Shown here: positions 11,102-27,255 of the stretch, one piece after another
Position numbering within the stretch: position 1 is the first letter of the stretch
How the letters are laid out: each line of letters starts with the position of its first letter
Source of the DNA: an uncultured Syntrophaceae bacterium
GTDB taxonomy: Bacteria; Desulfobacterota; Syntrophia; Syntrophales; PHBD01
Direction of reading: 5' to 3'
Assembly (NCBI GenBank): GCA_964396205.1
Contig: CAYNEJ010000002.1
Location: 2,631 to 66,630 of the forward strand
DNA: 64,000 bases
Notes under the pieces: model-generated
The model's database searches: none
What the model saw: only the letters and a program-made list of their open reading frames with translations
What the model was told of the DNA's origin: nothing
Program-made: the position numbers and the translations under genes

Positions 11102-13033
11102 TCAGATCTTCAGGCCGACGGTCAGGCCCTCCTCGACGGCCTCCCGGATCATGCGGGGCCGGACGCAGTCACCGATGGTGTAAACTTCCGGGGCCTTTCC
11201 CCGGAAGGCCTCGACAACCGCCGGGTCCAGGCGGAGACCCGCGGCCAGAACAACCGCGTCGCCCTCGATGAATTCGGGGGTTCCCTTCCGGTTCACCTTC
11301 ACGCCCTCCCCGGTGATCTCCTCGACGGTCGTCTGCGTCTCGAGGCGAACTCCCAGCATTTTCAGCATACCCAGGAAAAATGGCCGGTAGCTCGTGGAGA
11401 CGGTGGGCGCCAGGCGGTCCAGCATCTCCAGGACGGTGACGCTCGTGACGCCCCTGGACTTCGCAACCAGGAACTCCGCCGTCTCGCACCCCACCAGCCC
11501 GCCCCCGAGGATGATGACCCGGCCCTGGACGACTTTTTCCCCTGTCAGGACTTTTTCCGCCGGCACGACGTGGCCCGCCTCGACGCCGGGGATGTTCGGG
11601 ACGATGGGGGAGGCCCCCACGGCCAGGATCAGGGCCTCGGGCTGCTCCCGCTCCACGGTCCGCGGATCAAGCGCGGTTCCCAGGCGTATCTCGACGCCCG
11701 CCTTGCGGGCCCGCGCGACCAGGCTCCGGGTGAGGTTTGCGATTTCCTCCTTGTGGGGCGGCAGGCAGCCGATCCGCATCCATCCGCCCGGTTCCGGCTC
11801 CTTCTCGAAAAGCGTGACCCGGTGCCCCCGTTCCGCGGCCGTCAGGGCCGCCTGCAGGCCCGCGGGTCCGCCGCCGGCCACGAAGACCCGCTTTGCCTTG
11901 GCCGCGGGCGTGGAGACGTAGAGCAATTCCTTCCCCGTGCGCGGATTGACGGTGCACCCGGCGGACGCCCCGCAGTGGGGGTCCTTGTAGACGACCATGA
12001 TGTCGGAGAGGCAGTTCCCGCAGGCCAGGCAGGGCACGATCTCTTCGGCTCTCCCTTCCATTGCCTTGTTCGGAAGGTGCGGGTCGGCGATGAGAGCCCG
12101 TCCCATGCCCACGAAATCCGCCTGCCCCTCTGCAAGGATCCGCTCCGCCGTTTCCGGATCGTTGATCCGGTTGGAGGCGATGACGGGAATGCCGACGACG
12201 CTCCGGATCCGGCCGGCCAGGGGGGCGAAGGCCCCCTTCGGCACAATGGAGGCCACGGTGGGAACGCGCGATTCGTGCCATCCCGTGTAGGTGTTGATGA
12301 AGTTCAGGCCCGCCGCTTCCAGGGCCCGGGCCACGATGATCGACTCCTCGATGGTGTGTCCCCCGGGCATCTGCTCCTCCACGTTCAGGCGGACGCCCAG
12401 CGGGAAGTCGTCCCCCGCCTCCCGGCGGATGCTCGCGATGATTTCGAGGACGATGCGCATCCGGTTCTCCAGGCTTCCCCCGTACTTGTCTTCGCGCTGG
12501 TTCGTGATGGGAGACAGGAAGCGGTTCAGCAGGTAACCGGCTCCGACAATGAACTCCAGGGCGTCGAAGCCTCCCTGGCGGGCCCGCCCGGCGGCCTTTC
12601 CGTAATCCTCCACGAGCCCCTGGATTTCATCGATCGTGAGGGCCCGGGGGGTTCCCCGCATCATCTGGTTCGGAATCGCCGAGGGGCCGACAAGCTCGGG
12701 CATGTCGTCCCGGAAAACCATGTGGTAGGACGTGATGAGCTGGCAGGCGGCCTTTGCCCCGTGAGCCCGGATGGCCTCCGTGACCCGCCGGATTCCCGGG
12801 AGATAGCGGTCGTCGAAGACGCCCGGCGCCATGTGCGATCCGGCGTACATGGGGCTGAAGGGGATGATGATCATGCCGGCGCCGCCCCTTGCCCGCTCGG
12901 CGAAGTAGGCGATGAAGCGGTCCCCGACGGTCCCGTCGGGCTCCGAGTATCCCATGGTCATGGGAAGCATGACGATGCGGTTCCTGATTTCCAGGTTTCC
13001 GATGCGTCCGGGGGTGAACAGGTTCTGGAACAT
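11102..13033 (-). CDS. Old-Yellow-Enzyme-family NADH:flavin oxidoreductase fused to FAD/NAD(P) domain (2,4-dienoyl-CoA reductase-like)
   Basis: N-terminal TIM-barrel OYE pattern (LFTPGRIGNLEIRNRIVMLPM). A Cys cluster (CLACGNC...C) and the C-terminal Rossmann motif VFVAGGGPAGL. Confidence 0.9.
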   Translation of the reverse strand: MFQNLFTPGRIGNLEIRNRIVMLPMTMGYSEPDGTVGDRFIAYFAERARGGAGMIIIPFSPMYAGSHMAPGVFDDRYLPGIRRVTEAIRAHGAKAACQLITSYHMVFRDDMPELVGPSAIPNQMMRGTPRALTIDEIQGLVEDYGKAAGRARQGGFDALEFIVGAGYLLNRFLSPITNQREDKYGGSLENRMRIVLEIIASIRREAGDDFPLGVRLNVEEQMPGGHTIEESIIVARALEAAGLNFINTYTGWHESRVPTVASIVPKGAFAPLAGRIRSVVGIPVIASNRINDPETAERILAEGQADFVGMGRALIADPHLPNKAMEGRAEEIVPCLACGNCLSDIMVVYKDPHCGASAGCTVNPRTGKELLYVSTPAAKAKRVFVAGGGPAGLQAALTAAERGHRVTLFEKEPEPGGWMRIGCLPPHKEEIANLTRSLVARARKAGVEIRLGTALDPRTVEREQPEALILAVGASPIVPNIPGVEAGHVVPAEKVLTGEKVVQGRVIILGGGLVGCETAEFLVAKSRGVTSVTVLEMLDRLAPTVSTSYRPFFLGMLKMLGVRLETQTTVEEITGEGVKVNRKGTPEFIEGDAVVLAAGLRLDPAVVEAFRGKAPEVYTIGDCVRPRMIREAVEEGLTVGLKI

Positions 13034-13308
13034 TTCCTTCTCCTTTCGATTGGCTCCGAGACGGAATGAGCATCCGGTACGTGAATCGGCTGCTTTCGGG
13101 CGTTCGAGGAGCCGTCCGTCAGGATTCCATACCTGAATCCGGGTCGTGCTTCAATCCCTGATGACGTCGACCGGCATGATTTCCCCGGCCGACCCGGCCA
13201 TGCACACGGGCGACATGCCGTCTCCCCCGGCGCCCTCTCTTTTCTTCCCGCGTCCTCGCCACGGTATCCGTGAAGATGTTCAGGATTGTTTATAGAAAAG
13301 GATATGGA

Positions 13309-13324
13309 TGTGATCTTCATCACA
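13309..13324. promoter_or_regulatory. perfect CRP/HcpR-type palindrome TGTGA-N6-TCACA
   Basis: TGTGAtcttcaTCACA read directly. It sits in an AT-rich stretch, with TAATAT at 13344-13349 placing the site near -41.5. It is 97 nt upstream of GTG 13421. Confidence 0.55.
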
Positions 13325-13420
13325 GACATCAACTGCATTTTCATAATATTCGGCGTGGGAATTCGAAATGGCAGGGGGATTCAGAAGGTGGAGTCACCCG
13401 GACCGGAGGCGGAGGAGGCG

Positions 13421-13621
13421 GTGGGAGAAAAGCTGGTGCGCATCTATGAACTCGTGACCGAGAAGACCGGTCTCCATGGCAGGCTCGAACTTGCCGTGAA
13501 AACAGGGATATCCATGAGCAAGGCCGTCGAGGTGGAGGATACGGAAGAGCTCGTGCACAGGTTCAAAAATGCGGCAAGTGATGTCTACGAAGCGTTTTGC
13601 GGAAAAAAGCGTCATAACTGA
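13421..13621 (+). CDS. 66-aa protein, paralog 1 (HTH-like core ELAVKTGIS)
   Basis: GTG 13421 after GGAGGAGG. Colinear with the 66-aa ORF 15004..15204, with 29/66 identical ungapped by my count. Confidence 0.7.
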   Translation: MGEKLVRIYELVTEKTGLHGRLELAVKTGISMSKAVEVEDTEELVHRFKNAASDVYEAFCGKKRHN

Positions 13622-13632
13622 TCCGGCAGGAG

Positions 13633-14514
13633 ATGGGGCCCGTGGAAAGCGCGACCAGGAGAGATCTCAAGTTGATCGTGGACAACGAAGACTTCGCGGA
13701 AGGCCTGTCGCAAGCGGACAGGCCGGCCTCTAAAGAGGAAATGCACCGCTGGCCGATCTGCGGCCTGCCGGTGGGGAGCTTCCTGCAGGTGATCGCCATG
13801 GACCAGCAGACCTGCATCCTGGAAGTCTATCAGAGCGCCGATCGCCAGGGCCGCTTCTGCTTTGTTCAGGGATCCCTTTATGACGCTGTCTGCAACAGCC
13901 TGGAGGGAGAAGAGGCCGCGCTGGAGATGGTGTCCTGGGAGAGCGTCCGCCTCAACATCCGGCAGATTGTCGATGCCGGCGGCTTTGCGAAGAAGATCGA
14001 CAAGAGCCTCATGTCGATCCTGATGGAATCTTCAAGGCGCCGCGATGAGGCGGCGGACGCGCACGGCGGCACCGAGAAGGAGAAAACCGCGGCGGAGGAC
14101 CCTGGCGGCGGGGGGGAAGAATTCAAGAAATGCCTCCGCATTCTTCGGGAGGACATGGGGGATGCGCTCATCTCGGCAAGCGTTGCCGACCTTTCCACGG
14201 GGAACGTCCTGGCGTCGCATCACAACCGAAAAACGCTGGAAACCGCACAGCTTTTCATGAAGCTGACGGCTTCCCTCCGGATGGCCTTCGAAAGAGATCC
14301 CGAACAGAAGCGGCTCGGCGGCCATTACATCCTGAACCTCAGGGAAGGGCAGACGCTCATGGTCCTGCTCTTCGACGAGCATCAGCTGGGTCTCCTGTTC
14401 GACAACGCCAAATGCTCATTGGGCCTTGTCCTGAATGCCATTGTTCCAAAGGTTGCCAGGGCATTCCAGGAATGCGGCTGTTCAGCCGCCTCCCGGGATG
14501 CACGGTCCGGATGA
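13633..14514 (+). CDS. PATAN/DUF4388 domain protein fused to a Roadblock/LC7-like domain
   Basis: N-terminal half GLPVGSFLQVIAMDQQTCILEVY...GRFCFVQGSLYDA...GEEAALEMVSWESVRLNI fits DUF4388. The C-terminal half is colinear with the 124-aa downstream protein. Confidence 0.8.
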   Translation: MGPVESATRRDLKLIVDNEDFAEGLSQADRPASKEEMHRWPICGLPVGSFLQVIAMDQQTCILEVYQSADRQGRFCFVQGSLYDAVCNSLEGEEAALEMVSWESVRLNIRQIVDAGGFAKKIDKSLMSILMESSRRRDEAADAHGGTEKEKTAAEDPGGGGEEFKKCLRILREDMGDALISASVADLSTGNVLASHHNRKTLETAQLFMKLTASLRMAFERDPEQKRLGGHYILNLREGQTLMVLLFDEHQLGLLFDNAKCSLGLVLNAIVPKVARAFQECGCSAASRDARSG

Positions 14515-14610
14515 CCGACGGGCGAGGGGGCCGTGTCGAGGGGTCCCCCGGAAGATGGGTGTCGAGCGGCTGTTCAGTAAACAATTCAATATTTCTAAAG
14601 AGGAGGCGTG

Positions 14611-14982
14611 ATGAACATACAGAAATTGAATGGTTGTCTGGAAGGATTGAGGAAGGACCTGGGGGACGGTCTCCTGGCATCGAGCATCGTCTCCACGGAG
14701 GACGGACAGGTACTCGTGGCGACGGAAAGATCCAACACGGCCGGGGCCACCCTGCTGAATGAAATTACGGCCTCCATCCGTGATGGCCTGAAGACATACC
14801 CCGTGGAGCTGGGACAGTACTATTACATCGATGTCGCGGGGAACATGGGCATTCTCGCCATTCCCTTCGGGGACTACCAGTGGGCGATCGTCGTCAACAA
14901 GAAGCAGGTCAAGCTGGGACTGCTGTTGAATGTCGTGCTGCCCAGCATCATCAATGCATTCGAAGATGCAGTCGTGTCTTAG
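14611..14982 (+). CDS. Roadblock/LC7-like protein (divergent)
   Basis: ATG 14611 after AGGAGG. LGDGLLASSIVSTEDGQVLVA...LGLLLNVVLP, paralogous to the C-terminal half of 13633..14514. Confidence 0.75.
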   Translation: MNIQKLNGCLEGLRKDLGDGLLASSIVSTEDGQVLVATERSNTAGATLLNEITASIRDGLKTYPVELGQYYYIDVAGNMGILAIPFGDYQWAIVVNKKQVKLGLLLNVVLPSIINAFEDAVVS

Positions 14983-15003: not shown

Positions 15004-15204
15004 ATGGGAGAAAAAATGGTTCGGATCTTTGAGATTGTCATGGAGCAGGCGGGTCTGAAAGGGCGCATGGAGCTGGCGACCCGGACGGGAATATCCCAGA
15101 CCATGGCGGCCCAGATGAAGGATACCGAGGAGTTGGTAAAAAAATTAAAGGAAAACGCCAACTTGATCCTTGATCGGAGCAACCTGAATACCATCGGCCA
15201 TTGA
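15004..15204 (+). CDS. 66-aa protein, paralog 2
   Basis: ATG after GGAGGGGAGGG. MGEKMVRIFEIVMEQAGLKGRMELATRTGISQ...DTEELV matches 13421..13621. Confidence 0.75.
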   Translation: MGEKMVRIFEIVMEQAGLKGRMELATRTGISQTMAAQMKDTEELVKKLKENANLILDRSNLNTIGH

Positions 15205-15338: not shown

Positions 15339-15728
15339 GTGAGTCTGATCCTGGGTCGGCAGCATCTTGATAAGATCCAGGACTCCCTGCAGAAGAACCT
15401 GATCGGGTCGGGTGTCCGGAATGCCATGCTGATCGATATGGCCGGCAACGTCATTGTGACGGTCGACAACGGCGGGGAGGCGCGCGACATGTATTCGCTG
15501 GCCGCGCTGGCGGCGGCCAATTTCGGGGCCATGTGCAGCATGGCCCGGATCGTCGGGGAGGATGAATTCTCCCTCCTGTTTCACAAGGGGCAAAAAGAAA
15601 ACATCTATTTCACCAGGGTGAACGACGAGTTTCTCCTGATCAACATCTTCAACAACGAAGTGACCCTGGGATTTCTCAGGCTGAAAATGGCCCAGGTCAT
15701 CGAAGAATTGTCCCGTGTTCTGGACTGA
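15339..15728 (+). CDS. mglB: MglB-type Roadblock/LC7 GTPase-activating protein
   Basis: LAALAAANFGAMCSMARIVGEDEFSLLFHKGQKENIYF...VTLGFLRLKM is colinear with the Myxococcus MglB core as I remember it. Confidence 0.85.
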   Translation: MSLILGRQHLDKIQDSLQKNLIGSGVRNAMLIDMAGNVIVTVDNGGEARDMYSLAALAAANFGAMCSMARIVGEDEFSLLFHKGQKENIYFTRVNDEFLLINIFNNEVTLGFLRLKMAQVIEELSRVLD

Positions 15729-15800
15729 GATCCTTTCATCCGGCCGCCGTCAGGCCGGATGAGCAAGGCATGTGAGGCATCAGGCGGGGAGGAAACGGAT

Positions 15801-16421
15801 TTGGCATTCATCAACCTGAAGGACCGGGTCATTCAAGCCAAGATTGTCTACTACGGTCCCGGGCGATGCGGGAAAACGACCAATCTGGAATTCATCTACA
15901 GCAAGTGCCGCGAGCAGATCAATTCCGAGATGGTGACGGTCAAGACGCAGGGTGACCGCACCCTGTTCTTCGATTTCTTCCCGTTCGATATCGGAAAAAT
16001 CGCCGGATACGATGTGAAAATCCAGCTGTACACCGTTCCCGGCCAGGTGAAGTACAATTCAACGAGACGGCTGGTGCTCAAAGGCGTGGACGGCGTCGTG
16101 TTCGTGGCGGATTCCGAGGCGGAGCGGCGAAGCAAGAATGTGGCCTCCCTGATGAATCTCCAGGAGAACCTTGCCCTTTACAACAAGAACATTTTCGAGA
16201 TGCCGCTGGTCATGCAGTACAACAAACGGGACCTTGAAAAGCAGGGGATCGAGACGCTGGATATCGAGACCCTGGAGAAAGATCTCAACGATGTGCTGAA
16301 GGCACCGTCATTCGGGGCCAGTGCGCTGGACGGAGACAATATCGTTGCGACCCTGAAGAAAATCATATCGCTGACCATGTACTCCCTGGAAAAGGAACTG
16401 GAGAACGGGGATTGGCAATGA
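15801..16421 (+). CDS. mglA: MglA-family Ras-like small GTPase
   Basis: P-loop YYGPGRCGKTT, switch I DRTLFFDF, switch II YTVPGQV, and NKRD. TTG 15801 (after GGGGAGGA) aligns with the Myxococcus MglA N-terminus (SFIN...). ATG 15759 is the track alternative. Confidence 0.9.
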   Translation: MAFINLKDRVIQAKIVYYGPGRCGKTTNLEFIYSKCREQINSEMVTVKTQGDRTLFFDFFPFDIGKIAGYDVKIQLYTVPGQVKYNSTRRLVLKGVDGVVFVADSEAERRSKNVASLMNLQENLALYNKNIFEMPLVMQYNKRDLEKQGIETLDIETLEKDLNDVLKAPSFGASALDGDNIVATLKKIISLTMYSLEKELENGDWQ

Positions 16422-17569
16422 AAGAGTCGTCATTCGTTCGGGAAGTGGAAGATCGTCTGGATGTCCTGTTCGGGATCGGCTTGGATTCCTCGGATCGCGG
16501 CGGGAAAGCGGGACCGGATCACGGGAATGCCAGGACCATTCTGGAAAGCATCACCGCCGAATCCGCCGGGGAGAACTTGGAAGCCACGGCGGTTCTGAAC
16601 ATGGACGATCCGTTGAACGGCAGGGAAGACTCCGTGCCGCCCGGTCAGGAGAAACGATATCACGTCCTTTTGGAGGAAGCCGGGGAGGAGGCGGATCCGG
16701 AACCCGGGGCCGTCGATCACCCCGTTCTCGAGGAAATCTCCGCCGTCACCGAGCCGCCCGAGCCGGACGCGGACGGGGGCCGGCGCTTCGAGCGCATTTT
16801 CGGTGATATCGGATCGTACACGCCGGCGCTGTTTTCCCCGCTTAAGAACCTGAAAGGCATTCTCCTGTCCCTGGAGTGGGAAATCAGCGATCCCCTGTTG
16901 AACAGGCTGGACGTGGAGCTGAACGGATTGCAGGAGCTGTATCGCCACGAGCGGACCATTCTCGGCTTCCTGCGGATTCTTCGCTTCCTGGAACGCTACA
17001 TCCGGGTCAAGCGGGGGGATTCCCATACCGAGTCCGTCAAACTGCTTTTTTCCGTCTACGACGACCTGGAGCGGGTCATTCTGTCCAAAACCATGGTGGA
17101 AGAAATAAAGCGGTCCATCCTGGTGGTCGATATCGGGAAATACAGGGATTGGGTGGAGAACATCGACCTCTCCTTCTGTACCGGGCCGGGCGCCGGGGAT
17201 AGCGGCGCCCCCGCGATTGCGGAAGAACCGGACGACGCGTCCGGGGTCCTGCCGTCTTTCGGCATGGAGGACGCCCTGCCTGCGATGGAGCCGTCCCTGC
17301 CTGCGATGGAGCCCCCGCTTGTGATGGAGCCCCCGCTGCCTGTGATGGAGCCCCCCCCGGGCCCCGCTCCCGGTGTGCTGCCGTCTGCCGAAGCCGGAGT
17401 CGAACGGTCCGCTGACGGAAGCGAAAGCGCCGGGACGGACCTCTCCGCCGTGCTGAAAACGATGGCACCGCACGAGGCCTTTGCCTTTGCCCTGGAGGAG
17501 ATGAAAAAAACGATCCATGACGAGTTCGAGGCGCTCCGGGCGGAGATTCGGATCCGGGGGGCGCGTTGA
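16418..17569 (+). CDS. acidic/proline-rich hypothetical protein with helical core and LPAMEP repeats
   Basis: ATG 16418 overlaps the mglA stop (ATGA). No family recognised. The central region LLSLEWEISDPLLNRLDVELNGLQELY... looks helical. Confidence 0.7.
   Translation: MKESSFVREVEDRLDVLFGIGLDSSDRGGKAGPDHGNARTILESITAESAGENLEATAVLNMDDPLNGREDSVPPGQEKRYHVLLEEAGEEADPEPGAVDHPVLEEISAVTEPPEPDADGGRRFERIFGDIGSYTPALFSPLKNLKGILLSLEWEISDPLLNRLDVELNGLQELYRHERTILGFLRILRFLERYIRVKRGDSHTESVKLLFSVYDDLERVILSKTMVEEIKRSILVVDIGKYRDWVENIDLSFCTGPGAGDSGAPAIAEEPDDASGVLPSFGMEDALPAMEPSLPAMEPPLVMEPPLPVMEPPPGPAPGVLPSAEAGVERSADGSESAGTDLSAVLKTMAPHEAFAFALEEMKKTIHDEFEALRAEIRIRGAR
17276..17356 (+). repeat. four tandem 18-21 nt coding repeats (LPAMEP-type)
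   Basis: ctgcctgcgatggagccgtcc / ctgcctgcgatggagcccccg / cttgtgatggagcccccg / ctgcctgtgatggagcccccc. Confidence 0.85.
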
Positions 17570-17839: not shown

Positions 17840-18985
17840 ATGAATGTCCCGAATGAAACATTCGACTTGATTCGTGAAAAACAGGAACTGGATGCTTTTT
17901 TGTCGACATTCATGACCGTGAGTCCGCCTCTGCCCGTGGAAGAAGCAGGGGAATCCGGTCCTGTGCCGTGCATTGCGCCGTCTCCGGCGATATACGAGGA
18001 AAGCGACAAACCCGCTTCGGTCGGAAAAGAGACCTCCCCGGACGGTATGCCGGAGACACCGGTTTCGGTTGCACCGGCCGTTTCTCCGGCAGAGGTCGAA
18101 CCGGTTTCCATTGCGGAACCGGTTGGGGCCGCTGCCCCGGACAGCGGGCGGGAGGAATCGCTCTCCCCGGAAGAGGAGCCGGAACAGCGTCCGGAGCCTC
18201 CACAGAATCAGGCGCCCCCGGTCTTCGCGGAGCTTCTGCCGATCGACCGGCCCGCCGGGGCTCCGGAAAGCCGCAGCGACGTCCCGGAGATGGACCGGAC
18301 CTTGAGGCTTGAGCGAGGAAAGTTGGAGGCCGCCGCCTCCGCCGAAGCGGAGGGAGACGATAAAACGAACAGCGGGGAAGCGGCGAACGGCGTCTCCGTT
18401 TCCGGCAACCGGGCAAAACACCGGCGCCCGTTGCTTCTGTCGGCCCTGCTTCTGTGCCTGGCTCTGGCCCTTCTCCTGCTCGGCTACTCGTGGCTTCGGC
18501 CCTCCAGCGGGCAGGGGGCGGTTCAATGGCTGTCCCTGCATGTTCCTGTTGCCCGTCAATACCTGGAAGTCGGACAACCGCATCCGAATCCCGCGGGCAG
18601 GCAGGTCGGGATTGTCAACCTTCAGCAGCGGCTCGTCAGAAACGAGGTCCTCGGCCGGGAGATCCGGATCATCGAGGGAACGGCGTTCAACCGGGGACAG
18701 GAAAGCATCTCGGGAATCCGAATCAGGGGCGAGCTTTACGATGCCCAGGGCCGGCTTGCCGCCGCGCGGATGTCTTTCTGCGGAAGCATGATGGCCGACG
18801 ATCACCTGCAAACCCTGGGAGAGCAGGAACTCCGCCTGGCGCTTTTGGCTGCACAGGCACCCCCCCAGGCGTACAGCGCGGTTCCACCCGGGGGCCAGAC
18901 GCCGTTCATGATCGTGTTCATCCAGGAGCCGCCGGGGATCGTCCGGGCCATGGTGGAGCCCGTCGGCATGGAAACGGTCCGCTGA
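17840..18985 (+). CDS. single-pass membrane protein with C-terminal DUF3426-like domain
   Basis: Long acidic/Pro-rich N-terminal region and TM helix LLLSALLLCLALALLLLGY. The C-terminal beta-rich region IRIIEGTAFN...IRIRGELYDAQGR...FMIVFIQ is typical of DUF3426. Confidence 0.7.
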   Translation: MNVPNETFDLIREKQELDAFLSTFMTVSPPLPVEEAGESGPVPCIAPSPAIYEESDKPASVGKETSPDGMPETPVSVAPAVSPAEVEPVSIAEPVGAAAPDSGREESLSPEEEPEQRPEPPQNQAPPVFAELLPIDRPAGAPESRSDVPEMDRTLRLERGKLEAAASAEAEGDDKTNSGEAANGVSVSGNRAKHRRPLLLSALLLCLALALLLLGYSWLRPSSGQGAVQWLSLHVPVARQYLEVGQPHPNPAGRQVGIVNLQQRLVRNEVLGREIRIIEGTAFNRGQESISGIRIRGELYDAQGRLAAARMSFCGSMMADDHLQTLGEQELRLALLAAQAPPQAYSAVPPGGQTPFMIVFIQEPPGIVRAMVEPVGMETVR

Positions 18986-19116
18986 CCCTGCGGAGCGAAG
19001 GCGTTTCTGCGTGCCCGGTGGATGCGGCTCCGGTTTCCTGTTGTGCGGATCTATCGATGTTCGTCCCTCCCGCCCGAGACCATCTTCCTGCGGGTTTTCC
19101 GCTTCCGGTCCTGATC

Positions 19117-21429
19117 ATGCAAGAAGCAAATCATTCTGAAAAATCAAACCATTCCAGCGAAATCAACGAACTGGAAGAGATTCTCCGCCTCCAGAACGAG
19201 CTTCAGGACATCACCAACGAGATTTATGCCGCCCAGGGCCTGGCGCAGATATTCACCGACTGCAGCAGAAGGATCGTGAATCTTTTCCGGGTCGAAGCGG
19301 TGAATATCTATGCCGTCGACAAGCAGCGGAGGGAAATCTATACCATCATCAAGGCGGGACACCTGTTCCGGGAGCAGCGGATGGCCATCAACAACCGGTC
19401 GATTCCCGGTTATGTCGCCGATAACGGCTTTGCGATCAACATCGCCGACATTCACGACCAGGCCGAGATGAAAAGCCGCTGCAAGGGACTGGACCTCGCC
19501 GGCGACCGGGATGCCCGTTCAAACACCCGTCTCAGGCAGGTCATGGCCATGCCCATTATCCATGAGGGTGAGGTCATCGGCGTCATCGAGGTGATCAACA
19601 GGCCGGGACGGGAAGGAAGATTCGTCGAGGAAGAACCGGTTTTGCTGCAGGAGATCTCGGAAGTCCTCGCCATCGCGTTCTCCAATCACAACCGGTATGC
19701 CGGCCGGCGGAAAACGCGTTTCGATTCCCTCATCCGGAAAGGGTTCCTGAAGGAAGAGGACCTCGATCAAGCCCTGGAGGAGGCCCGGGAAAAGAAAGAG
19801 ACCATGGAAGACTTCCTGATGAGAAAATTCGGCATCTCGAAGGAAGATCTCGGCCAATCGCTGGAAGAGTTTTACCGGTGCAGATTCTTCCAGTTCAGCG
19901 ACAAAATCCCCATTCCCGCGGAACTCCTGGTCCGGCTCAACAAGGAATACCTGCATCGGGAGCTCTGGGTGCCCATCGAGAAATCCGACGGCCGGATTCA
20001 TATCCTGGTCAGCGATCCCGATAACATCATCAAGCGGGACATGATCGAAAATCTCCTGAAAACGAAGGATATCCGGTACGATGTCGCCCTTCCGGAGGAC
20101 ATCTCCAGGTTCATCGATTATTTCTACCAGTCCCATGGGGATGAAACGTCCATCTCGGACATCATCGGCAGGCTGGAAAACCCCGAGGAGGGCGAGGAGG
20201 AAGGCGAGGAAGAGGCCGTTACGGAATCGGACAGCGCGATCATGCTGCTCGTCAACAAGATCATCAACGATGCGGTCGGCAGGCGGGCGTCCGATATTCA
20301 CATCGAACCCAATATCGGCCGGAGGAACGTGGAGGTCCGCTTCCGCATCGACGGCGACTGCTCCGTATACCAGACCGTGCCCTTCAGCTATCGGGCCGCT
20401 CTTGTCTCGCGGATCAAGATCATGTCCAACCTGGACATCACCGTGAAGCGGATCCCCCAGGACGGGAAGATCAAGTTTCGCCGGAATGGAAGCGATGAGA
20501 TCGAGCTGCGCGTGGCGACGCTGCCGACCCAGGGGGGAGTCGAGGACGTCGTGATGCGGCTTCTCGCCAAGGGGGAAACGCTGCCCTTGGAAGCCATGGG
20601 CATGCTGGACCGGAATTATGAGGAACTCCTCAAGGTCTGCGAAAAGCCGTACGGCATGATCCTCGTGGTCGGGCCGACGGGCTCGGGGAAAACGACCACT
20701 CTCCACGCGGCCCTTCGTCATATCAACACCCCGGAGAAAAAGATCTGGACGGCGGAGGATCCCGTGGAAATCACCCAGTACGGACTCCGGCAGGTCCAGG
20801 TGCAGCCCAAGATCGGCTTCGACTTTGCAACGGCCATGCGGGCCTTTCTCCGAGCCGATCCGGACGTGATCATGGTGGGGGAAATGCGCGATTTCGAAAC
20901 GGCCAAGACCGGCGTGGAGGCCTCTCTGACGGGTCATCTCGTCTTCAGTACGCTGCACACGAACAGCGCCCCGGAAACCATCATTCGGCTCCTCGACATG
21001 GGCATCGATCCCCTGAACTTCGCCGACGCCCTCCTCGGCGTCCTCGCCCAGAGGCTGGTCCGGACGCTGTGCAAAAACTGCCGCGAACCCTATCATCCCA
21101 GCCGGAAGGAATACGACGAAATGGCGGAGAGTTACGGCAGGGAACGGTTTGAGGAGCTGGCCGTCTCCTACACGAACGACCTGACCCTGTACCGGCCCCG
21201 GGGCTGCGACCTCTGCGACCGGTCAGGATACAAGGGACGCGTGGGCATCCACGAGCTCCTCATCGCCAGCGACGGTGTGAAACGGCTCATCCAGAAAAAC
21301 GAAACCGTCGAGACGCTGCGGGAGAAGGCCATGTCCGAAGGGATGTCCACACTCCTCCAGGACGGCATTCAAAAAGCCCTTCGGGGCATTACCGACTTCC
21401 GGCAGGTCCGGAGGGTCTGCATCAAGTAG
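19117..21429 (+). CDS. GAF domain-containing GspE/PilB-family secretion ATPase
   Basis: ATG 19117 within ORF 18454..21429; the upstream part overlaps the previous gene. The GAF-like N-terminal region is followed by a T2SSE_N-like region. Walker A GPTGSGKTT, Walker B DPDVIMVGEMRD, tetracysteine CKNC...CDLC. Confidence 0.9.
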   Translation: MQEANHSEKSNHSSEINELEEILRLQNELQDITNEIYAAQGLAQIFTDCSRRIVNLFRVEAVNIYAVDKQRREIYTIIKAGHLFREQRMAINNRSIPGYVADNGFAINIADIHDQAEMKSRCKGLDLAGDRDARSNTRLRQVMAMPIIHEGEVIGVIEVINRPGREGRFVEEEPVLLQEISEVLAIAFSNHNRYAGRRKTRFDSLIRKGFLKEEDLDQALEEAREKKETMEDFLMRKFGISKEDLGQSLEEFYRCRFFQFSDKIPIPAELLVRLNKEYLHRELWVPIEKSDGRIHILVSDPDNIIKRDMIENLLKTKDIRYDVALPEDISRFIDYFYQSHGDETSISDIIGRLENPEEGEEEGEEEAVTESDSAIMLLVNKIINDAVGRRASDIHIEPNIGRRNVEVRFRIDGDCSVYQTVPFSYRAALVSRIKIMSNLDITVKRIPQDGKIKFRRNGSDEIELRVATLPTQGGVEDVVMRLLAKGETLPLEAMGMLDRNYEELLKVCEKPYGMILVVGPTGSGKTTTLHAALRHINTPEKKIWTAEDPVEITQYGLRQVQVQPKIGFDFATAMRAFLRADPDVIMVGEMRDFETAKTGVEASLTGHLVFSTLHTNSAPETIIRLLDMGIDPLNFADALLGVLAQRLVRTLCKNCREPYHPSRKEYDEMAESYGRERFEELAVSYTNDLTLYRPRGCDLCDRSGYKGRVGIHELLIASDGVKRLIQKNETVETLREKAMSEGMSTLLQDGIQKALRGITDFRQVRRVCIK

Positions 21430-21627: not shown

Positions 21628-21656
21628 TTGACAAGGCCCCATGGTTCTTTTAATTG
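21628..21656 (+). promoter_or_regulatory. sigma70-like promoter
   Basis: TTGACA, 17 nt, TAATTG, about 80 nt upstream of TTG 21738. Confidence 0.35.
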
Positions 21657-21737: not shown

Positions 21738-22508
21738 TTGCAAAAGAGTGAAATCCGTGCCTCCGACCTGTTTGAGGCCTGTCATATCCTTTTCGGGGAC
21801 CAGACCGACGTCTCCGTTCAATTCCTGAACAATTACCTTCAGTTGTCAGGTTTGAAGGCGGCTTACCGGAAGAGGGCCCGGGAGACCCACCCGGATCGCG
21901 CCCTCTCGCTCGCCGTCGAATCCAGCATTCTCGAGGAGCAGTTCAAGCAGGTCCAGTCCGCCTTCGAGCGGCTTCGCCTCTATCTGGAGAATCCGTCCCG
22001 GTTTCGGCTGATCGAGGGAAATGGGCGCCGTGCAGCTCCCTCCGCGTCGAGGGAAGATGTGCCGCTCAAAAAGAGGGCGGCGCGGATGCAGGACCATGTC
22101 CATACGGGGCCGATCCCCGCGGGCAGGCTTCTCTTCGGGCGATATCTCTATTACTCGGGCCTGATCAGCCACCGGATCCTGATTGACGCGGTGGTATGGC
22201 AGAAGCGGCAGAGACCCCTGCTCGGGATGATCGCCTGCCGGTGGGGCTGGCTCTCCCGGGGAGATGTCCTGGATATCCTGAAGCAATGCCGGGCCAGAGA
22301 GCGTTTCGGTGAATGCGCCGTCCGCCTCGGGTATATGGACGTCAGGCAGCTGCATCGCCTGACGACGTGGCAGAAGATGCTGCAGCCCCGATTCGGGGAT
22401 TTCTTCGTCTCCAGGGGGATCTTGACGGCCGGGCAGATTGACTGCCTGGCAAAGGATCACCGGCTGCACAACTGGACCGGTCGAAGAACCCCGAGAAAGC
22501 GTTCGTGA
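21738..22508 (+). CDS. J-domain (DnaJ-like) protein with two tandem MshEN-like repeat pairs
   Basis: J-domain YRKRARETHPDRA (HPD motif). The C-terminal half has four 24-residue xLGxxhhxxGhhxxxxLxxxhxxQ-like units spaced 5/4/5 residues apart. Confidence 0.8.
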   Translation: MQKSEIRASDLFEACHILFGDQTDVSVQFLNNYLQLSGLKAAYRKRARETHPDRALSLAVESSILEEQFKQVQSAFERLRLYLENPSRFRLIEGNGRRAAPSASREDVPLKKRAARMQDHVHTGPIPAGRLLFGRYLYYSGLISHRILIDAVVWQKRQRPLLGMIACRWGWLSRGDVLDILKQCRARERFGECAVRLGYMDVRQLHRLTTWQKMLQPRFGDFFVSRGILTAGQIDCLAKDHRLHNWTGRRTPRKRS

Positions 22509-22520
22509 GGCCCCTCTGCG

Positions 22521-23231
22521 ATGGCAACCATGAAACAGCCGGCCATGCCGATTCGTTCTGACTCCCTTCTCCAGGAGCTTCCCATTTTCCGGGGCCTCCC
22601 GGGAGGGGACGTCGCCGAGATCCGGATGATGATGGGCGAGCGGCATTTCCAGCGGAACGAGGTGATCCTTTTCGAAGAGGACACTCCGCGCTTCCTCTAC
22701 GTGATCTACGAGGGGAGAGTGAAGGTGGCGCAGGTCGACGAGGAGGGGCGGGAACACATCCTGGCCGTCCACAAGCGCGGAGATTTCTTCGGTGAGATGG
22801 CCCTCCTGGACGGCAAGACCTCCCCGGCGAGGGTTGTGGCCCTGGAAGAGACGCGTGTGGGCTTCCTCGGACGGACGGATTTCGAGGCCCGTTTTCTGAA
22901 AAATCCCATCGCCGTCCGGCAGATCATCTCCCTGCTCTGCGAGCGGCTCCGTGATTCCTGGTTCATGCTCAAGGTCCTGAATCTGCAGCGGGCGGAAGAC
23001 AGGGTCCGGGCGGTCCTGGGCCACATGGCGAGCCGCTTCGGGTCGAGGGACGCCCGGGGGACGGCGATCCGGCTCCGGATGACCCACAGCGAGCTCGCGG
23101 ATTACGCCTCCCTTTCCCGCGAAACCGTCAGCCGGATCCTCAAGCGTCTGGAGCAGGCCGGGGAGATCTCCTTTCTCGAAAAAAGAAGAATCCTGATCAC
23201 GCCGAGTTTTCAAAAAATCGATTTTGTGTGA
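22521..23231 (+). CDS. Crp/Fnr family transcriptional regulator (CRP-like recognition helix)
   Basis: cNMP-binding fold (FFGEMALLDG) and C-terminal HTH SLSRETVSRILKRL with the R-E-x-x-x-R pattern of E. coli CRP. No FNR-type N-terminal Cys cluster. Confidence 0.9.
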   Translation: MATMKQPAMPIRSDSLLQELPIFRGLPGGDVAEIRMMMGERHFQRNEVILFEEDTPRFLYVIYEGRVKVAQVDEEGREHILAVHKRGDFFGEMALLDGKTSPARVVALEETRVGFLGRTDFEARFLKNPIAVRQIISLLCERLRDSWFMLKVLNLQRAEDRVRAVLGHMASRFGSRDARGTAIRLRMTHSELADYASLSRETVSRILKRLEQAGEISFLEKRRILITPSFQKIDFV

Positions 23232-23242
23232 CCCCCGTCACA
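23227..23242. promoter_or_regulatory. second perfect TGTGA-N6-TCACA palindrome
   Basis: TGTGAcccccgTCACA. It overlaps the stop codon of the Crp/Fnr gene and lies 103 nt upstream of ATG 23345. Confidence 0.5.
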
Positions 23243-23344
23243 TTTATCCCCCGCCACATCTGGCACTCTTCTTCCCGACTTCTCCCGCCGGCCCGCGAAT
23301 CTTCCTCCTGGGCCGGCCTCCTTTCGAACATACGGAGGTGGAAC

Positions 23345-23614
23345 ATGGAATCGATCTGGTCGATAGACGTCGTCGTTCCCTTTTCCAGCGTCCTTGCCGT
23401 CGTGCTGATCAGCACGGCCGGCCTGATCTTCGGCCGTCTGAAGCTGGTCCTGATCGTCCAGTACGGCTTTCTCGTGTACTGGGGGAGACTGTGGGACATC
23501 ACCATCTTCTCGGATTCAGCCTCGTGGCTGAGCGGACCGACGCTGCTGATCACCGGCGTGTTATTCGTCCTGCTGTTCTTTGCCGTCCTCGGGCTGACCG
23601 TTCACCGGGAATGA
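23345..23614 (+). CDS. small membrane protein (3 predicted helices)
   Basis: ATG 23345 after GGAGGTGG. Hydrophobic stretches VVVPFSSVLAVVLISTAGLIF, LVLIVQYGFLVYW and LLITGVLFVLLFFAVLGL. Confidence 0.6.
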   Translation: MESIWSIDVVVPFSSVLAVVLISTAGLIFGRLKLVLIVQYGFLVYWGRLWDITIFSDSASWLSGPTLLITGVLFVLLFFAVLGLTVHRE

Positions 23615-23811
23615 CATCCTGACCTCCTGAACCCGGCCGGCCGGAGCCTCCTTCCTCCCGCCAGGGAACCGGCCGGCCGGTGACCCTCCCTCCCCCTTGC
23701 CGGACCGTCCCTCTGATTCCCCGGAGAAGACCCGAAGGCCGCTCGGGCAAGTTTATCTTGCCCGATCTCCCCGGAAAGGATATCAGGGGAAAACTTTTTC
23801 GGGGGGAGCGC

Positions 23812-24003
23812 ATGAAATACCGCGTTATCCAGTGGGCGACCGGCTTCATGGGCAAAACCTGCCTGCGGGCCGTCATCGATCACCCCGACCTGGAACCGGC
23901 GGGATCGGTCGTCAACGCCATTCCCGAGGTCTGCGCCGCCCCGGCCGGCATCTTTCATTTCCCTCTCTTTGCGCCGTACAGGAAGCGCTTTTCCCGGGCG
24001 TGA
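23812..24003 (+). pseudogene. 5' remnant of a DapB-like/NAD(P)H amine-dehydrogenase-family gene
   Basis: MKYRVIQWATGFMGKTCLRAVIDHPDLE matches the N-terminal Rossmann start of that family. After about 30 codons the ORF becomes unrelated, and it stops at 64 codons instead of about 350. Confidence 0.5.
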
Positions 24004-24071
24004 ACCCCCGCAGCCGCGCGGCAGGCGGGGGAGGGACAGCAGCAGACAAACAAGGATCGAGGAGGTTGGCT

Positions 24072-25157
24072 TTGACGGACGATGTGTATGCCCAATTGGC
24101 AAAAGTGCTCGACACGCTGCCCAACGGTTTTCCCAGGACCGACAGCGGCGTGGAGCTCAGGCTCCTGAAGAGAATCTTCACCCCCGCCCAGGCGGAGCTG
24201 TTCGGCAGGCTGCGCCTGACCTTCGAGACGGTGGAGGAGATCGCAGCCCGGACCGGAATGCCCCTCGAAGGCCTGAAGCAGGCCCTCATGGACATGGCGA
24301 GTCGTGGGCAGATTTTCACGATCAAGCCCGGGGGAATCCGGTACTTCCGGATGCTGCCCTGGGTCTTCGGGATCTACGAGTTTCAGCTCGACAGCATGGA
24401 TAGCGAGTTTGCGGAGCTGAACGAGGCGTATTGGCCCTACCTTACGAAACAGTTTTTTTCCGAGACGCCGCAGCTCATGCAGACCCTCGCCGTGGAGGAG
24501 ACGGTCCCCTCGCCCCAGGAGGCGCTTCCCTATGAGAAGGTGTCGGCGATCATCGAAAAGGGATGCTCGTTCATGGTCAACGAGTGCATCTGCAAGAAGG
24601 AGAAGGGCCTTCTGGGTACCCCGTGCGACAGGCCTCTGCATGTCTGCATGGGCATCGCCCTTGTGCCCGGAGTCTTCGACAAGACCCCCTCAAGCCGCAC
24701 GCTGACGAAGGAAGAAGCCTACGCCCTCCTGAAAATGACGGAGGATGCGGGCCTCGTGCACTTGATCAGCAATGTGCAGCATGGGCATTACTTTATCTGC
24801 AACTGCTGCAAATGCTGCTGCGGGGTGCTCCGCGCCATCAACCAGTTCGGGGTGCCTGCCTCCCAGGTCGTCAATTCCCATTACTACGCCGAAATTGACG
24901 GGGAGCTCTGCACCGGCTGCGGAATCTGCGCGGACAGCCGCTGCCAGGTGGGAGCCGTTGTGGAAGACGGGGACATATACAGGGTGCTCAAGGAGGGGTG
25001 CATCGGCTGCGGGCTCTGTGTCACCGCCTGCCCGGTGGAGGCCGTCCGCCTTGTCCGCAAGGACCCGGACGAGATCGAGACTCCGCCCCTGATCGAGGAG
25101 GCATGGTTCGACGAGCGCGGGCGGCGCCGGGGAGTGGATTTTTCCGCCTACAGGTAG
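24072..25157 (+). CDS. 4Fe-4S dicluster protein with winged-helix-like N-terminus and CNCCxCCC motif
   Basis: TTG 24072 after GGAGG. ICNCCKCCCG, CTGCGICADSRC and CIGCGLCVTACP. Paralog of 55730..57043. Confidence 0.8.
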   Translation: MTDDVYAQLAKVLDTLPNGFPRTDSGVELRLLKRIFTPAQAELFGRLRLTFETVEEIAARTGMPLEGLKQALMDMASRGQIFTIKPGGIRYFRMLPWVFGIYEFQLDSMDSEFAELNEAYWPYLTKQFFSETPQLMQTLAVEETVPSPQEALPYEKVSAIIEKGCSFMVNECICKKEKGLLGTPCDRPLHVCMGIALVPGVFDKTPSSRTLTKEEAYALLKMTEDAGLVHLISNVQHGHYFICNCCKCCCGVLRAINQFGVPASQVVNSHYYAEIDGELCTGCGICADSRCQVGAVVEDGDIYRVLKEGCIGCGLCVTACPVEAVRLVRKDPDEIETPPLIEEAWFDERGRRRGVDFSAYR

Positions 25158-26064: not shown

Positions 26065-26093
26065 TTGACAGGGCGGGAATCGTTTTTTATCTT
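26065..26093 (+). promoter_or_regulatory. sigma70-like promoter
   Basis: TTGACA, 17 nt, TATCTT, the same hexamers as at 8418. This implies the track start TTG 26065 is not the real start. Confidence 0.35.
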
Positions 26094-26130
26094 CAGGGCG
26101 CGCGGAGCCGCTGGATCGCCCCCGCTGTTC

Positions 26131-27255
26131 ATGGATCTCCCGGAGGCGCTCCCGGCAGGGTGCGGCAGGGGAAAGAGCGATGCTCTCCTGCTCCCCGCGG
26201 GCGTTTCCTTCATACTCGAAACCGGAAAGGACCTTCCCGTGAGCGTGAAACATTTTCCCCAGGCCCTTCTCCATTACGGCCTTTCCCTCACCGCCCAGGT
26301 GATCAGCCTGTGCATGGCCGTCATCCTGATCTCCACCGCATATTCGCTGACCGTTCCCCGCCTGGCTCCATACGGCATATCGATGGGGAAAGACCACCGA
26401 TATGCCAGGGCCGCCATCACCCTTGAACAGACGATCACCAAACCGGTCCGCGCGGTGGTTCCCATCCGGATCGGCGGCCATGACATGACGCCATGGATCG
26501 TCCTGGTCCTGTCGTTCGTTTTCACCTTCTGGTTCAACACCCTGAGCTACCGCTATTTCTACGAGGGGCAGTACCATCGCTACCGGAACAAGGTCGATGA
26601 GATGAAGAGCCGGCTGCGCATCTCCGATCATGCGATGCGCGCCATGCCGATCGGCCGGAATCTGGATCAGCTCAAAACGGCGAACAGGAAGGAGCGCGAG
26701 CAGATCATCCGGGAGTTTGCCGAGGCGAAGCGAAAGCTCGACCAGCTGGGCCGGGATCTGGCCTTTCTGTCCATCGACATCGTCGATTCCACGGGCATGA
26801 AGCAGGGCGAGGACAAGGCCGTCGTTCAGAACGATTTCACCCGGTACCGCCAGTTCGTCGGCGGGATCCTCGGCGATCACGGGTGCCTGAAGTCCACATG
26901 GACGCCCGACGGGGTCATGGCCTGCTTTTCCAGCGTCACGGATGCCGTCAGCGCCGCCCGGGGCGTCATCCATGGCCTGGAAGGCTTCAACCGGGATCTC
27001 AAGCAGCTCCGGAGGGATTTCACGGTCCGCTGCGGGGTGAACTCGGGATTCGTCATCTTCGACGAGGCGACGCCCCTCGAGGAGATCAGCGATCCCGCCA
27101 TCGACATCGCGGGCCACATGCAGAAACATGCCGTGCCGAACTCCATCGGCATCCCGAAACCCGTCATCGAGGCGCTTTCCGGGGACAGCGGCTTCGTACC
27201 GTCGGGCAGGACAATCGACGGCTATGAGGTGTACGAGTGGAAGAAAGGCGGATGA
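26131..27255 (+). CDS. membrane-anchored class III adenylate/guanylate cyclase
   Basis: Two hydrophobic segments and a coiled-coil precede the cyclase domain FLSIDIVDSTGM...TPDGVMACF...RCGVNSG. The start is uncertain (26065/26131/later). Confidence 0.8.
   Translation: MDLPEALPAGCGRGKSDALLLPAGVSFILETGKDLPVSVKHFPQALLHYGLSLTAQVISLCMAVILISTAYSLTVPRLAPYGISMGKDHRYARAAITLEQTITKPVRAVVPIRIGGHDMTPWIVLVLSFVFTFWFNTLSYRYFYEGQYHRYRNKVDEMKSRLRISDHAMRAMPIGRNLDQLKTANRKEREQIIREFAEAKRKLDQLGRDLAFLSIDIVDSTGMKQGEDKAVVQNDFTRYRQFVGGILGDHGCLKSTWTPDGVMACFSSVTDAVSAARGVIHGLEGFNRDLKQLRRDFTVRCGVNSGFVIFDEATPLEEISDPAIDIAGHMQKHAVPNSIGIPKPVIEALSGDSGFVPSGRTIDGYEVYEWKKGG

Follow-up and report, generated by a model that had tools for sequence, protein, structure and literature searches.

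Two conserved TGTGA-N6-TCACA palindromes are putative operators of a Crp/Fnr-family regulator encoded near an mgl-like gene string in an uncultured Syntrophaceae bacterium

Introduction

Two copies of the palindrome TGTGA-N6-TCACA are present near each other in the genome of an uncultured bacterium belonging to a Syntrophales/Syntrophaceae genus, one in front of a string of genes that includes MglA- and MglB-like members, and the other across the stop codon of a gene coding for a Crp/Fnr-family regulator. The question they raise is whether they are operators, and if so, of which protein and with what effect on transcription. A reading of the sequence alone had proposed control of the mgl-like string by the local regulator, and the comparative genomics described here – conservation of the sites, their co-occurrence with the regulator gene, and a recognition helix unique to its product – supports that proposal. 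We put at roughly 0.7 the probability that the two palindromes are operators of this regulator, with the regulator acting as a class II activator of both the string and the gene at 23345. The DNA analyzed, referred to throughout as the window, is a 64-kb stretch (positions 2631-66630 of contig C2) of a 3.41-Mb assembly in 227 contigs with a GC content of 61.6%.

Residues R180, E181, and R185 of CRP form the R-E-x-x-x-R of its recognition helix, and class II CRP-dependent promoters have their site centered near -41.5, where it covers the -35 position and leaves about 21 nt to the -10 hexamer; their -35 box is weak or missing. FNR carries an N-terminal cysteine cluster for its [4Fe-4S] centre, and its helix, of the E--SR type, recognizes TTGAT. 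Other members of the family are CRP-like without canonical cAMP dependence, such as Xanthomonas Clp, Burkholderia Bcam1349 (c-di-GMP), and Thermus SdrP; both Clp and Bcam1349 are connected to surface or biofilm behavior. Vfr of Pseudomonas aeruginosa is a CRP homologue with canonical cAMP binding and a large regulon that controls type IV pilus and surface-behavior genes. The Crp homologue of P. gingivalis is a further CRP-like regulator that is cAMP-independent or otherwise liganded (PMC12040651). Arg180 has been tied to the G at position 3 of TGTGA, as opposed to the T of TTGAC-type boxes (Rodionov et al. 2004, PMC545781), and HcpR of Desulfovibrio, which has Arg at the position of CRP-180, has the predicted operator TTGTGA-N6-TCACAA and is often encoded beside its target (PMC545781).

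Results

Two perfect palindromes in the window

The two sites are as follows:

13309-13324, no strand: site 1, a perfect TGTGAT-N4-ATCACA, TGTGATCTTCATCACA, predicted operator 5' of the mgl-like string
23227-23242, no strand: site 2, a perfect TGTGAC-N4-GTCACA, TGTGACCCCCGTCACA, predicted operator containing the TGA stop codon of the regulator gene at 22521-23231

Both are exactly where the sequence-only reading had placed them, and they are the only perfect matches to TGTGA-N6-TCACA in the 64-kb window. Site 1 lies within a 387-bp intergenic region, whereas at site 2 the junction with the regulator gene reads ...GTG TGA and is followed by 103 nt to the ATG at 23345. That two copies are unlikely to be accidental is borne out, as 100 dinucleotide-preserving shuffles of the window contain no perfect match and the half-sites are invariant in six genomes (see below). 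Matches with two mismatches number 12 in the window versus 12.5 expected, which is chance level, and the information is thus carried by the exact sites only.

An exhaustive search of the 3.41-Mb genome returned three perfect sites, where mononucleotide composition predicts approximately 1.5, and 21 sites with one mismatch. None of the three perfect sites is within real coding sequence; all are either outside it or at a gene edge. Site 1 was labeled as coding by our crude ORF caller because of an over-long ORF with a TTG start (13286-13621); this caller mis-calls strands in a GC-rich genome and was applied solely to label sites as coding or intergenic. Seven of the 21 one-mismatch sites fall between genes, and with about 14% of the genome non-coding this is only a modest enrichment. 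If perfect and one-mismatch sites are taken together, their density is about one per 140 kb. The extended consensus TGTGAY-N4-RTCACA fits all of the functional-looking sites, and several isolated perfect matches elsewhere depart from it.

Gene content of the locus

The genes and the promoter candidate that concern us here are:

11102-13033, minus strand: OYE-type flavin oxidoreductase, upstream of the string
13421-13621, plus strand: 66-aa protein that opens the string; its GTG start comes after GGAGGAGG, and it has a paralogue at 15004-15204
13633-14514, plus strand: DUF4388 (PATAN/DUF4388) protein (PF14332, E 1.5e-9)
14608-14982, plus strand: 124-aa paralogue of the C-terminal half of the DUF4388 protein, 95-98% identical across congeners
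15339-15728, plus strand: MglB-like Roadblock/LC7 protein (PF03259, 8.6e-12; NCBIfam MglB model 2e-17, below cut-off)
15759-16421, plus strand: MglA-like small Ras-type GTPase (Arf/Ras family matches), 76-82% identical in other Syntrophales genera
16412-17569, plus strand: uncharacterized protein, overlapping the mglA stop codon
17840-18985, plus strand: DUF3426 protein (PF11906, 2.8e-8)
18454-21429, plus strand: GAF + MshEN + T2SSE (GspE/PilB-class) ATPase (PF00437, 1.7e-119; PF05157; PF01590)
21628-21656, plus strand: predicted sigma-70-type promoter, TTGACA-17-TAATTG, candidate for the J-domain and regulator genes
21738-22508, plus strand: J-domain protein with an MshE-related c-di-GMP-binding motif (NF053729 above cut-off; DnaJ just below the Pfam cut-off)
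22521-23231, plus strand: Crp/Fnr-family regulator, 236 aa (PF00027, 1.8e-24; PF13545, 1.5e-13; PF00325, 4e-10), helix RETVSR
23345-23614, plus strand: 89-aa small membrane protein with no Pfam family, homologues of which follow the orthologous site in G001-G005, G007, and G008

The resemblance of the C-terminal half of the DUF4388 protein to the 14608-14982 product is evident by BLASTP (7e-19). The coordinates given for the ATPase are those of the longest ORF; its domain matches begin at residue 262, and translation probably starts further downstream than this ORF suggests. The string is interrupted by gaps of 356, 270, and 308 nt, the last of them preceding the J-domain gene, which makes any assignment of the operon's extent tentative. 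The J-domain and regulator genes are separated by 12 nt. Within the promoter candidate in front of this pair TTTTGCGTTGACAAG is invariant in six genomes and the -10 region is conserved as TAAT(T/G)G, so that the regulator need not depend on site 1 for its own expression.

A gene for an Fe-S protein also lies downstream of site 2. It is doubtful as a target of the site, being approximately 457 nt from the small membrane-protein gene (more than 1 kb in four congeners) and absent after the site in G007 and G008. The first 125 residues of its 486-aa ORF look like a translation of non-coding sequence, and the real start is probably near 24072.

The regulator has a CRP-type recognition helix but an atypical ligand pocket

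The 22521-23231 product has the architecture of the Crp/Fnr superfamily, with an N-terminal cNMP-binding-type beta-barrel and a C-terminal Crp-type helix-turn-helix, and its best solved relatives are the Crp-family regulators 7pza and 4ev0. Its recognition helix had been read as RETVSR and the product sequence indeed contains SRETVSR, with the R-E-x-x-x-R of TGTGA readers. A tblastn search with the regulator shows three Crp/Fnr proteins with a helix-turn-helix in the genome, and the other two have the helices PEALSR and PETLSR, which are of the E--SR type without Arg at the CRP-180 position; the 22521-23231 product is therefore the only one of these paralogues with R-E-x-x-x-R. The signature RET-x-[ST]-R is kept in 13 of the 13 orthologues examined.

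The earlier description of the system as CRP-type holds for DNA recognition, in both the RETVSR helix and the TGTGA sites, but not for the ligand pocket. Alignment to 7pza (PRSA) and 4ev0 (ERSA) places a Ser where the Arg that contacts the cAMP phosphate is found, although the GE of the cassette is present, and in the orthologues this position is S, A, L, T, or E within a clade motif LDGK[ST]xPA[TR]V. The phosphate-binding cassette G-E...R-[ST]-A of cAMP-dependent CRPs (E. coli CRP, Vfr, GlxR, Clr) is thus incomplete, which suggests that the regulator is not a canonical cAMP receptor, and canonically bound cAMP is probably not the activating signal. The genome encodes six class III cyclase domains (PF00211), so cyclic nucleotides are presumably available. 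A nearby ORF considered as a cyclase (26065-27255) has no Pfam cyclase match, and none of the six PF00211 matches is on this contig.

Two other identities for the regulator were considered and rejected. It is not an FNR, as its N-terminal region has no Cys, its helix has the leading Arg of the CRP type, and its sites are TGTGA and not TTGAT. The sequence-only reading had also drawn a comparison with HcpR, and although HcpR of Desulfovibrio is likewise a Crp/Fnr regulator of anaerobic delta-proteobacteria with Arg at CRP-180, the comparison does not hold up, since neither hcp nor frdX is at this locus. The hcp gene is instead on contig C133, where the TTGATTTAAGTCAA box approximately 75 nt upstream is of the TTGAT/GTCAA type, the alternative HcpR/FNR-type box, and the approximately 950 nt upstream of hcp contain no TGTGA-N6-TCACA site with fewer than two mismatches. 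The PETLSR paralogue fits better, and with a ferredoxin-like gene adjoining it is the likelier HcpR.

Conservation of both sites within the genus

This genome and five congeners (G001-G005) provide a footprinting set of six genomes. The congeners encode regulators with 89-91% identity, and their strings are syntenic from the 66-aa gene through the Fe-S gene. One of them is 'Deltaproteobacteria bacterium HGW-Deltaproteobacteria-19'. In each of the five congeners the two palindromes occur without mismatch at orthologous positions, and across the six genomes all ten half-site columns are invariant at each site, as compared with three of the six spacer columns and, among the remaining intergenic columns near site 1, only 13%; sequences 5' of site 1 are practically unalignable. 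Spacers among the congeners are TCTTCA, TTTTCA, TCTTTA, and TTTTCG at site 1, and CCCCCG, CGTCCG, CGCCCG, and CGTTCG at site 2. Each congener genome contains two to four perfect palindromes. A further genome of the same genus, G006, is 99% complete, and a search of it revealed no regulator, no MglA gene or string, and no perfect palindrome; it contains seven sites with at most one mismatch, versus 27-34 in the congeners. At the level of sequence comparison, the palindromes are thus confirmed as real and evolutionarily conserved sites.

Promoter geometry

Candidate -10 elements follow both sites:

13344-13349, plus strand: candidate -10-like hexamer TAATAT, 19 nt after site 1, with no proper -35 box
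23261-23269, plus strand: candidate extended -10, TGG + CACTCT, with the hexamer 21 nt after site 2

The hexamers that align with TAATAT in the congeners are TAATAT, TACAAT, and TAAAGT, and a promoter scan at site 1 returns ATCACA-17-CATAAT, in which the right half-site sits in the -35 position. The -10 region at site 2 is CTGGCAATCT in the congeners and TGGTATAAA in G007. A gap of 19-22 nt between site and hexamer is seen at nearly every site, including those of other lineages described below: it is 21 nt at the third perfect site of the genome, and TATAAT is 21 nt after the site in a Nitrospirota locus and 22 nt after it in a Geobacter locus. The -10-like hexamer of G040 is GATATT. Some of the -10 candidates are poor (CACTCT or CAATCT at site 2, GCATGA at the third site), and none of the sites examined has an independent -35 box.

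It had been proposed that the center of site 1 lies about 41 nt from a transcription start. The TAATAT hexamer on which this was based is present, but with a start 7 nt after it the center of the site (13316.5) would be nearer -39.5; on the same assumption the predicted center is at about -41.5 for both site 2 and the third site. The 19-22 nt gap to the -10 hexamer together with the lack of a -35 box resembles the class II layout, which points to activation. Reading the conserved CTGGCA after site 2 as part of a sigma-54 promoter was rejected, because the GG-N10-GC pattern is not present and there is a CC at the -12 position.

The motif travels with the regulator gene

Orthologues of the regulator are accompanied by the palindrome well beyond this genus. 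Several genomes have a perfect copy right at the stop codon of the orthologue itself (G021, G028, and G049; Geobacter, Thermodesulfobacteriota, and Nitrospirota MAGs), and in G007 and G008 a perfect copy lies approximately 75-150 nt 3' of the orthologue and is followed by a homologue of the small membrane protein. Palindromes with one mismatch are found 3' of the orthologous gene in G040 and G043, and approximately 35-40 nt before the aligned start of the orthologue in G042, G046, G048, and G050. The unit of regulator, operator, and small gene is presumably the older core of the regulon. In the Geobacter MAG the promoter with the orthologous operator precedes a c-di-GMP-I-GGC riboswitch (RF03167, 66.7 bits), after which comes a 592-aa ORF.

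The link to the mgl-like string is lineage-specific

We sampled 80 loci encoding an MglA-like GTPase, 0.98 Mb in total, a set that includes two of the congeners. There are five perfect palindromes in these loci, and all five are either at the 5' end of the string or at the 3' end of the crp gene. Two other Syntrophales lineages, 'Syntrophales bacterium SBS.BIN.13' (G040/L170) and 'STB_114' (L174), have a perfect site 110-120 nt 5' of the first string gene, and two further loci (L163 and L165) have AGTGAC-N4-RTCACA at the equivalent place; all four encode an orthologue of the regulator at another locus. Four sampled genomes that are not from Syntrophales (Desulfatibacillum, Desulfobacterales, Desulfatiglandales, and Syntrophobacter) contain an mglA-like locus with no palindrome there and encode no orthologue at E ≤ 1e-35.

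The presence of the regulator does not guarantee a site at the string. G007 and G008, which belong to the same family and encode the regulator, have no palindrome at the string, and their string promoters are TTGACA-17-TATATT and TTGACT-17-TATTAT with long leaders; approximately 40 Smithella-type loci also have no palindrome at the string. Because the site is missing in these genomes, the string does not appear to be a core member of the regulon. Sequence comparison indicates that the link is real but lineage-specific, with most Syntrophales strings, including those of two genera in the same family, having no site. The regulator would be necessary but not sufficient for a site at the string, which is presumably a lineage-specific recruit to the regulon.

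A third site and possible further members

The third perfect site in this genome, TGTGATATCCATCACA on the strand of the gene, is at 1326-1341 of contig C84, between a CDP-glucose 4,6-dehydratase-like gene and a glucose-1-phosphate cytidylyltransferase-like (rfbF-like) gene, and G001 and G002 retain it, flanked by the same pair of sugar genes. A perfect TGTGAAATCCGTCACA on contig C4 of G005 has neither rfbF nor rfbG beside it and was taken as unrelated to the third site. A one-mismatch TGTGAAATAATTCAAA on contig C55 is 25 nt before an acyl-CoA dehydrogenase gene, with a near-identical TGTGAAAAAATTCAAA in G001 and G002, but is too close to the start codon for a class II site.

Discussion

We propose the following model. 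What is inferred in it is that the regulator binds, in which direction it acts, where transcription starts, and how far the operon reaches. A sigma-70-type promoter of its own, at about 21628, would drive expression of the regulator and of the J-domain/c-di-GMP-motif gene that precedes it. When active it would bind as a dimer, its R-E-x-x-x-R helix reading TGTGA, and since each site is in the place of a -35 box, 19-21 nt before a weak -10 hexamer, the bound regulator would recruit RNA polymerase in class II fashion. The predicted targets are the string from 13421 (PATAN/DUF4388, Roadblock paralogues, MglB, and MglA, plus the GAF-MshEN-GspE-type ATPase if it is co-transcribed), the small membrane-protein gene at 23345, and the rfbF-like glucose-1-phosphate cytidylyltransferase gene on the other contig, where the geometry is the same. 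With two palindromes and a third site, the regulon would be tiny, at two or three promoters.

The most serious competitor keeps the regulator on its sites but makes it a repressor or a dual regulator, in which case site 2 might, for instance, act by roadblock or feedback where the regulator gene ends, and site 1 might occlude the -35 region of the string promoter. The right half of site 1 is the best -35-like hexamer available, and exclusion of sigma-70 is therefore conceivable; moreover, Crp/Fnr proteins can activate or repress, and both modes have been predicted for HcpR (PMC545781). The sites ahead of some Smithellaceae orthologues are also in a typical position for autorepression. We nonetheless regard repression as improbable, because the recurrence of the 19-22 nt gap across phyla with no independent -35 box would be a signature of class II activation, and because strings without a palindrome have a full consensus -35 in its stead, suggesting that the palindrome is a functional replacement for the -35 box. 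Less probable still is that the palindromes are functional operators of some other DNA-binding protein. The many genomes that have the regulator and a string without a site would be accommodated by this, but the regulator is the sole Crp/Fnr paralogue with a TGTGA-reading helix, the orthologous gene and the site are physically joined in many lineages of several phyla, the regulator and the sites have been lost together in G006, and genomes with a string but no orthologue lack the palindrome there.

It is very unlikely that the palindromes act in RNA, for example as a terminator or a 3'-end stabilizer of the regulator mRNA, even though the RNA of site 2 would fold into a 7-bp stem (-7.9 kcal/mol, z = -6) with UUUAU after it. 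This is not a U-tract, the hairpin of site 1 is no better than shuffled sequences (z = -1.4) and lies upstream of the predicted start, and no Rfam family reaches the gathering threshold anywhere in the window. The stem shows no covariation in approximately 30 sites, the ten letters being fixed at unlinked loci in several phyla, and invariance without covariation fits base-specific protein contacts rather than pairing. As for functionless chance occurrences, the genome-wide expectation is such that any one site could have arisen by chance, but not two within 10 kb, both non-coding or at a gene edge and both conserved in five genomes against a diverged background, while a reversed control pattern has no match in any congener; chance is effectively refuted. 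Activation by the 22521-23231 product thus stands as the preferred reading.

Among the closest characterized systems is E. coli CRP at class II promoters such as galP1. The two proteins share the cNMP-binding fold and the Crp-type helix-turn-helix, with RETVGR in CRP versus RETVSR here, and their sites share the 16-bp core TGTGA-N6-TCACA with a preference for T:A or C:G at positions 6 and 11; the predicted placement of the site over the -35 position, some 20 nt before a candidate -10 hexamer, would also be common to both. As a mechanism, class II binding by a CRP-like dimer is textbook. The differences are that R82 of CRP, which contacts the cAMP phosphate, is replaced by a Ser that is not conserved in the clade, that overall similarity to CRP is low (E 1e-12; 68 bits with the NCBIfam CRP model versus a cut-off of 266), and that the predicted regulon comprises two or three promoters with no link to carbon catabolism, as compared with hundreds for CRP. 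Vfr, structures of which are among the solved sequence matches to the regulator, is likewise a CRP-family protein tied to polarity, pilus, and surface genes, but neither pilin nor platform genes occur in the present string, whose ATPase is an orphan. Clp, Bcam1349, SdrP, and the P. gingivalis Crp share the CRP fold and CRP-like operators with the system described here, to which they are related by analogy only.

Although this regulon prediction is probably solid it is fairly ordinary, and its value is in offering a testable set of three promoters for an uncharacterized Crp/Fnr clade that is widespread in uncultured Syntrophales and also found in Geobacter, Thermodesulfobacteriota, and Nitrospirota MAGs. 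Our literature search turned up neither a paper that connects Crp-type regulators with MglA/MglB-type strings nor, outside the myxobacteria, a published transcriptional regulator of such a polarity string, and this may be the first to be predicted; the 'mglBA' of E. coli that appears in the literature is an unrelated galactose transporter. The locus would also be an example of regulon rewiring, with the string on a consensus sigma-70 promoter in sister genera and on an activator site here.

The more interesting point is perhaps the ligand, given the missing cAMP Arg and the c-di-GMP-binding neighbors. The absence of this Arg, the partnership with a tandem-MshEN c-di-GMP receptor, and the riboswitch in the Geobacter MAG raise the possibility of a non-cAMP sensor, and by analogy it could be speculated, as a tentative and rather doubtful proposition, that this Crp clade senses a cyclic dinucleotide or another non-cAMP signal and controls an MglA/MglB module, a small membrane protein, and a surface-sugar gene in some Syntrophales, with an operator in its own stop codon as its hallmark. 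Hints of c-di-GMP at this locus are that the regulator gene is apparently co-transcribed with that of the c-di-GMP-motif J-domain protein, and that it lies 3' of the gene for the MshEN-domain ATPase.

Joint absence of the regulator, the MglA gene and the palindrome

The congeneric genome G006, which is 99% complete, contains neither the Crp/Fnr-family regulator nor the MglA gene, and has no perfect TGTGA-N6-TCACA palindrome anywhere in the genome. This joint absence suggests that regulator, MglA and palindrome were gained or lost as a single unit. The region of the mgl-like string (13-17 kb of the window) has a GC content of 0.56-0.58, versus 0.66-0.69 in the genes just upstream.

Candidate promoter and putative autoregulation of the regulator gene

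One promoter candidate lies upstream of the gene pair encoding the J-domain protein and the regulator (crp):

21628-21656, candidate sigma-70-type promoter, TTGACA-17-TAATTG

Its -35 block, TTTTGCGTTGACAAG, is identical across six genomes. In orthologues from Smithellaceae and other Syntrophales (L222 and L223-L225) a palindrome with one mismatch is located approximately 35-40 nt 5' of the point where the regulator gene begins in the alignment, and not at the stop of that gene; this upstream site suggests autoregulation within that sub-clade.

Gene models downstream of the regulator

The 486-aa ORF at 23697-25157 is probably over-extended, and residues 1 to ~125 are rich in Arg, Pro and Gly and non-coding in appearance. 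The true start of the Fe-S protein is likely near 24072, which would leave a gap of ~457 nt (23615-24071) behind the small membrane-protein gene. A reading of the ORF at 26065-27255 as a membrane class III cyclase was rejected, as Pfam returned no cyclase match and the best match was to an unrelated family (E 0.098). None of the six PF00211 matches of genome G000, from which the window derives, is on the contig bearing the window.

Sites elsewhere in the genome

Three sites of note in G000 lie outside the window:

C84:1326-1341, third perfect palindrome of G000, between rfbG-like and rfbF-like CDP-sugar genes
C55:18063-18078, TGTGAAATAATTCAAA, 25 nt 5' of an acyl-CoA dehydrogenase-like gene
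C133:7667-7680, TTGATTTAAGTCAA, an FNR/HcpR-type box preceding hcp, the hybrid-cluster protein gene

The C84 palindrome is kept in the congeners G001 and G002, and approximately 22 nt downstream of it is a conserved block, CATGAAAC(A/G)G(G/A)CGCCG, that could correspond to a short uORF or to a leader. By sequence match, G001 and G002 also hold TGTGAAAAAATTCAAA, nearly identical to the C55 site, which may be a weak or repressive member of the regulon. A Crp/Fnr paralogue on contig C29, with the helix PETLSR and adjoining ferredoxin-like and hemerythrin-like genes, is a likely HcpR.

Leader elements

Downstream of the -10 box and ahead of the GTG start codon, the predicted 5' leader of the mgl-like string contains two conserved GGAATTC-like elements at 13375-13397, which could form a leader hairpin or a site for a second regulator. 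The pair reads GGGATTC-N7-GGAGTCAC in G000 and GGAATTCC-N6-GGAATTCC in G002, and in G040, of another Syntrophales lineage, GTGGAATTCC is immediately 5' of the RBS.

A riboswitch is present at the locus of the Geobacter orthologue (L002):

10752-10826 of L002, Geobacter sp. MAG JACOUQ010000004.1, c-di-GMP-I-GGC riboswitch (RF03167, 66.7 bits)

A similar-looking leader at another locus, L004, falls below the gathering score. The L002 riboswitch lies directly 3' of the palindrome-plus-TATAAT promoter of the orthologous regulator, and is followed by a 592-aa ORF.
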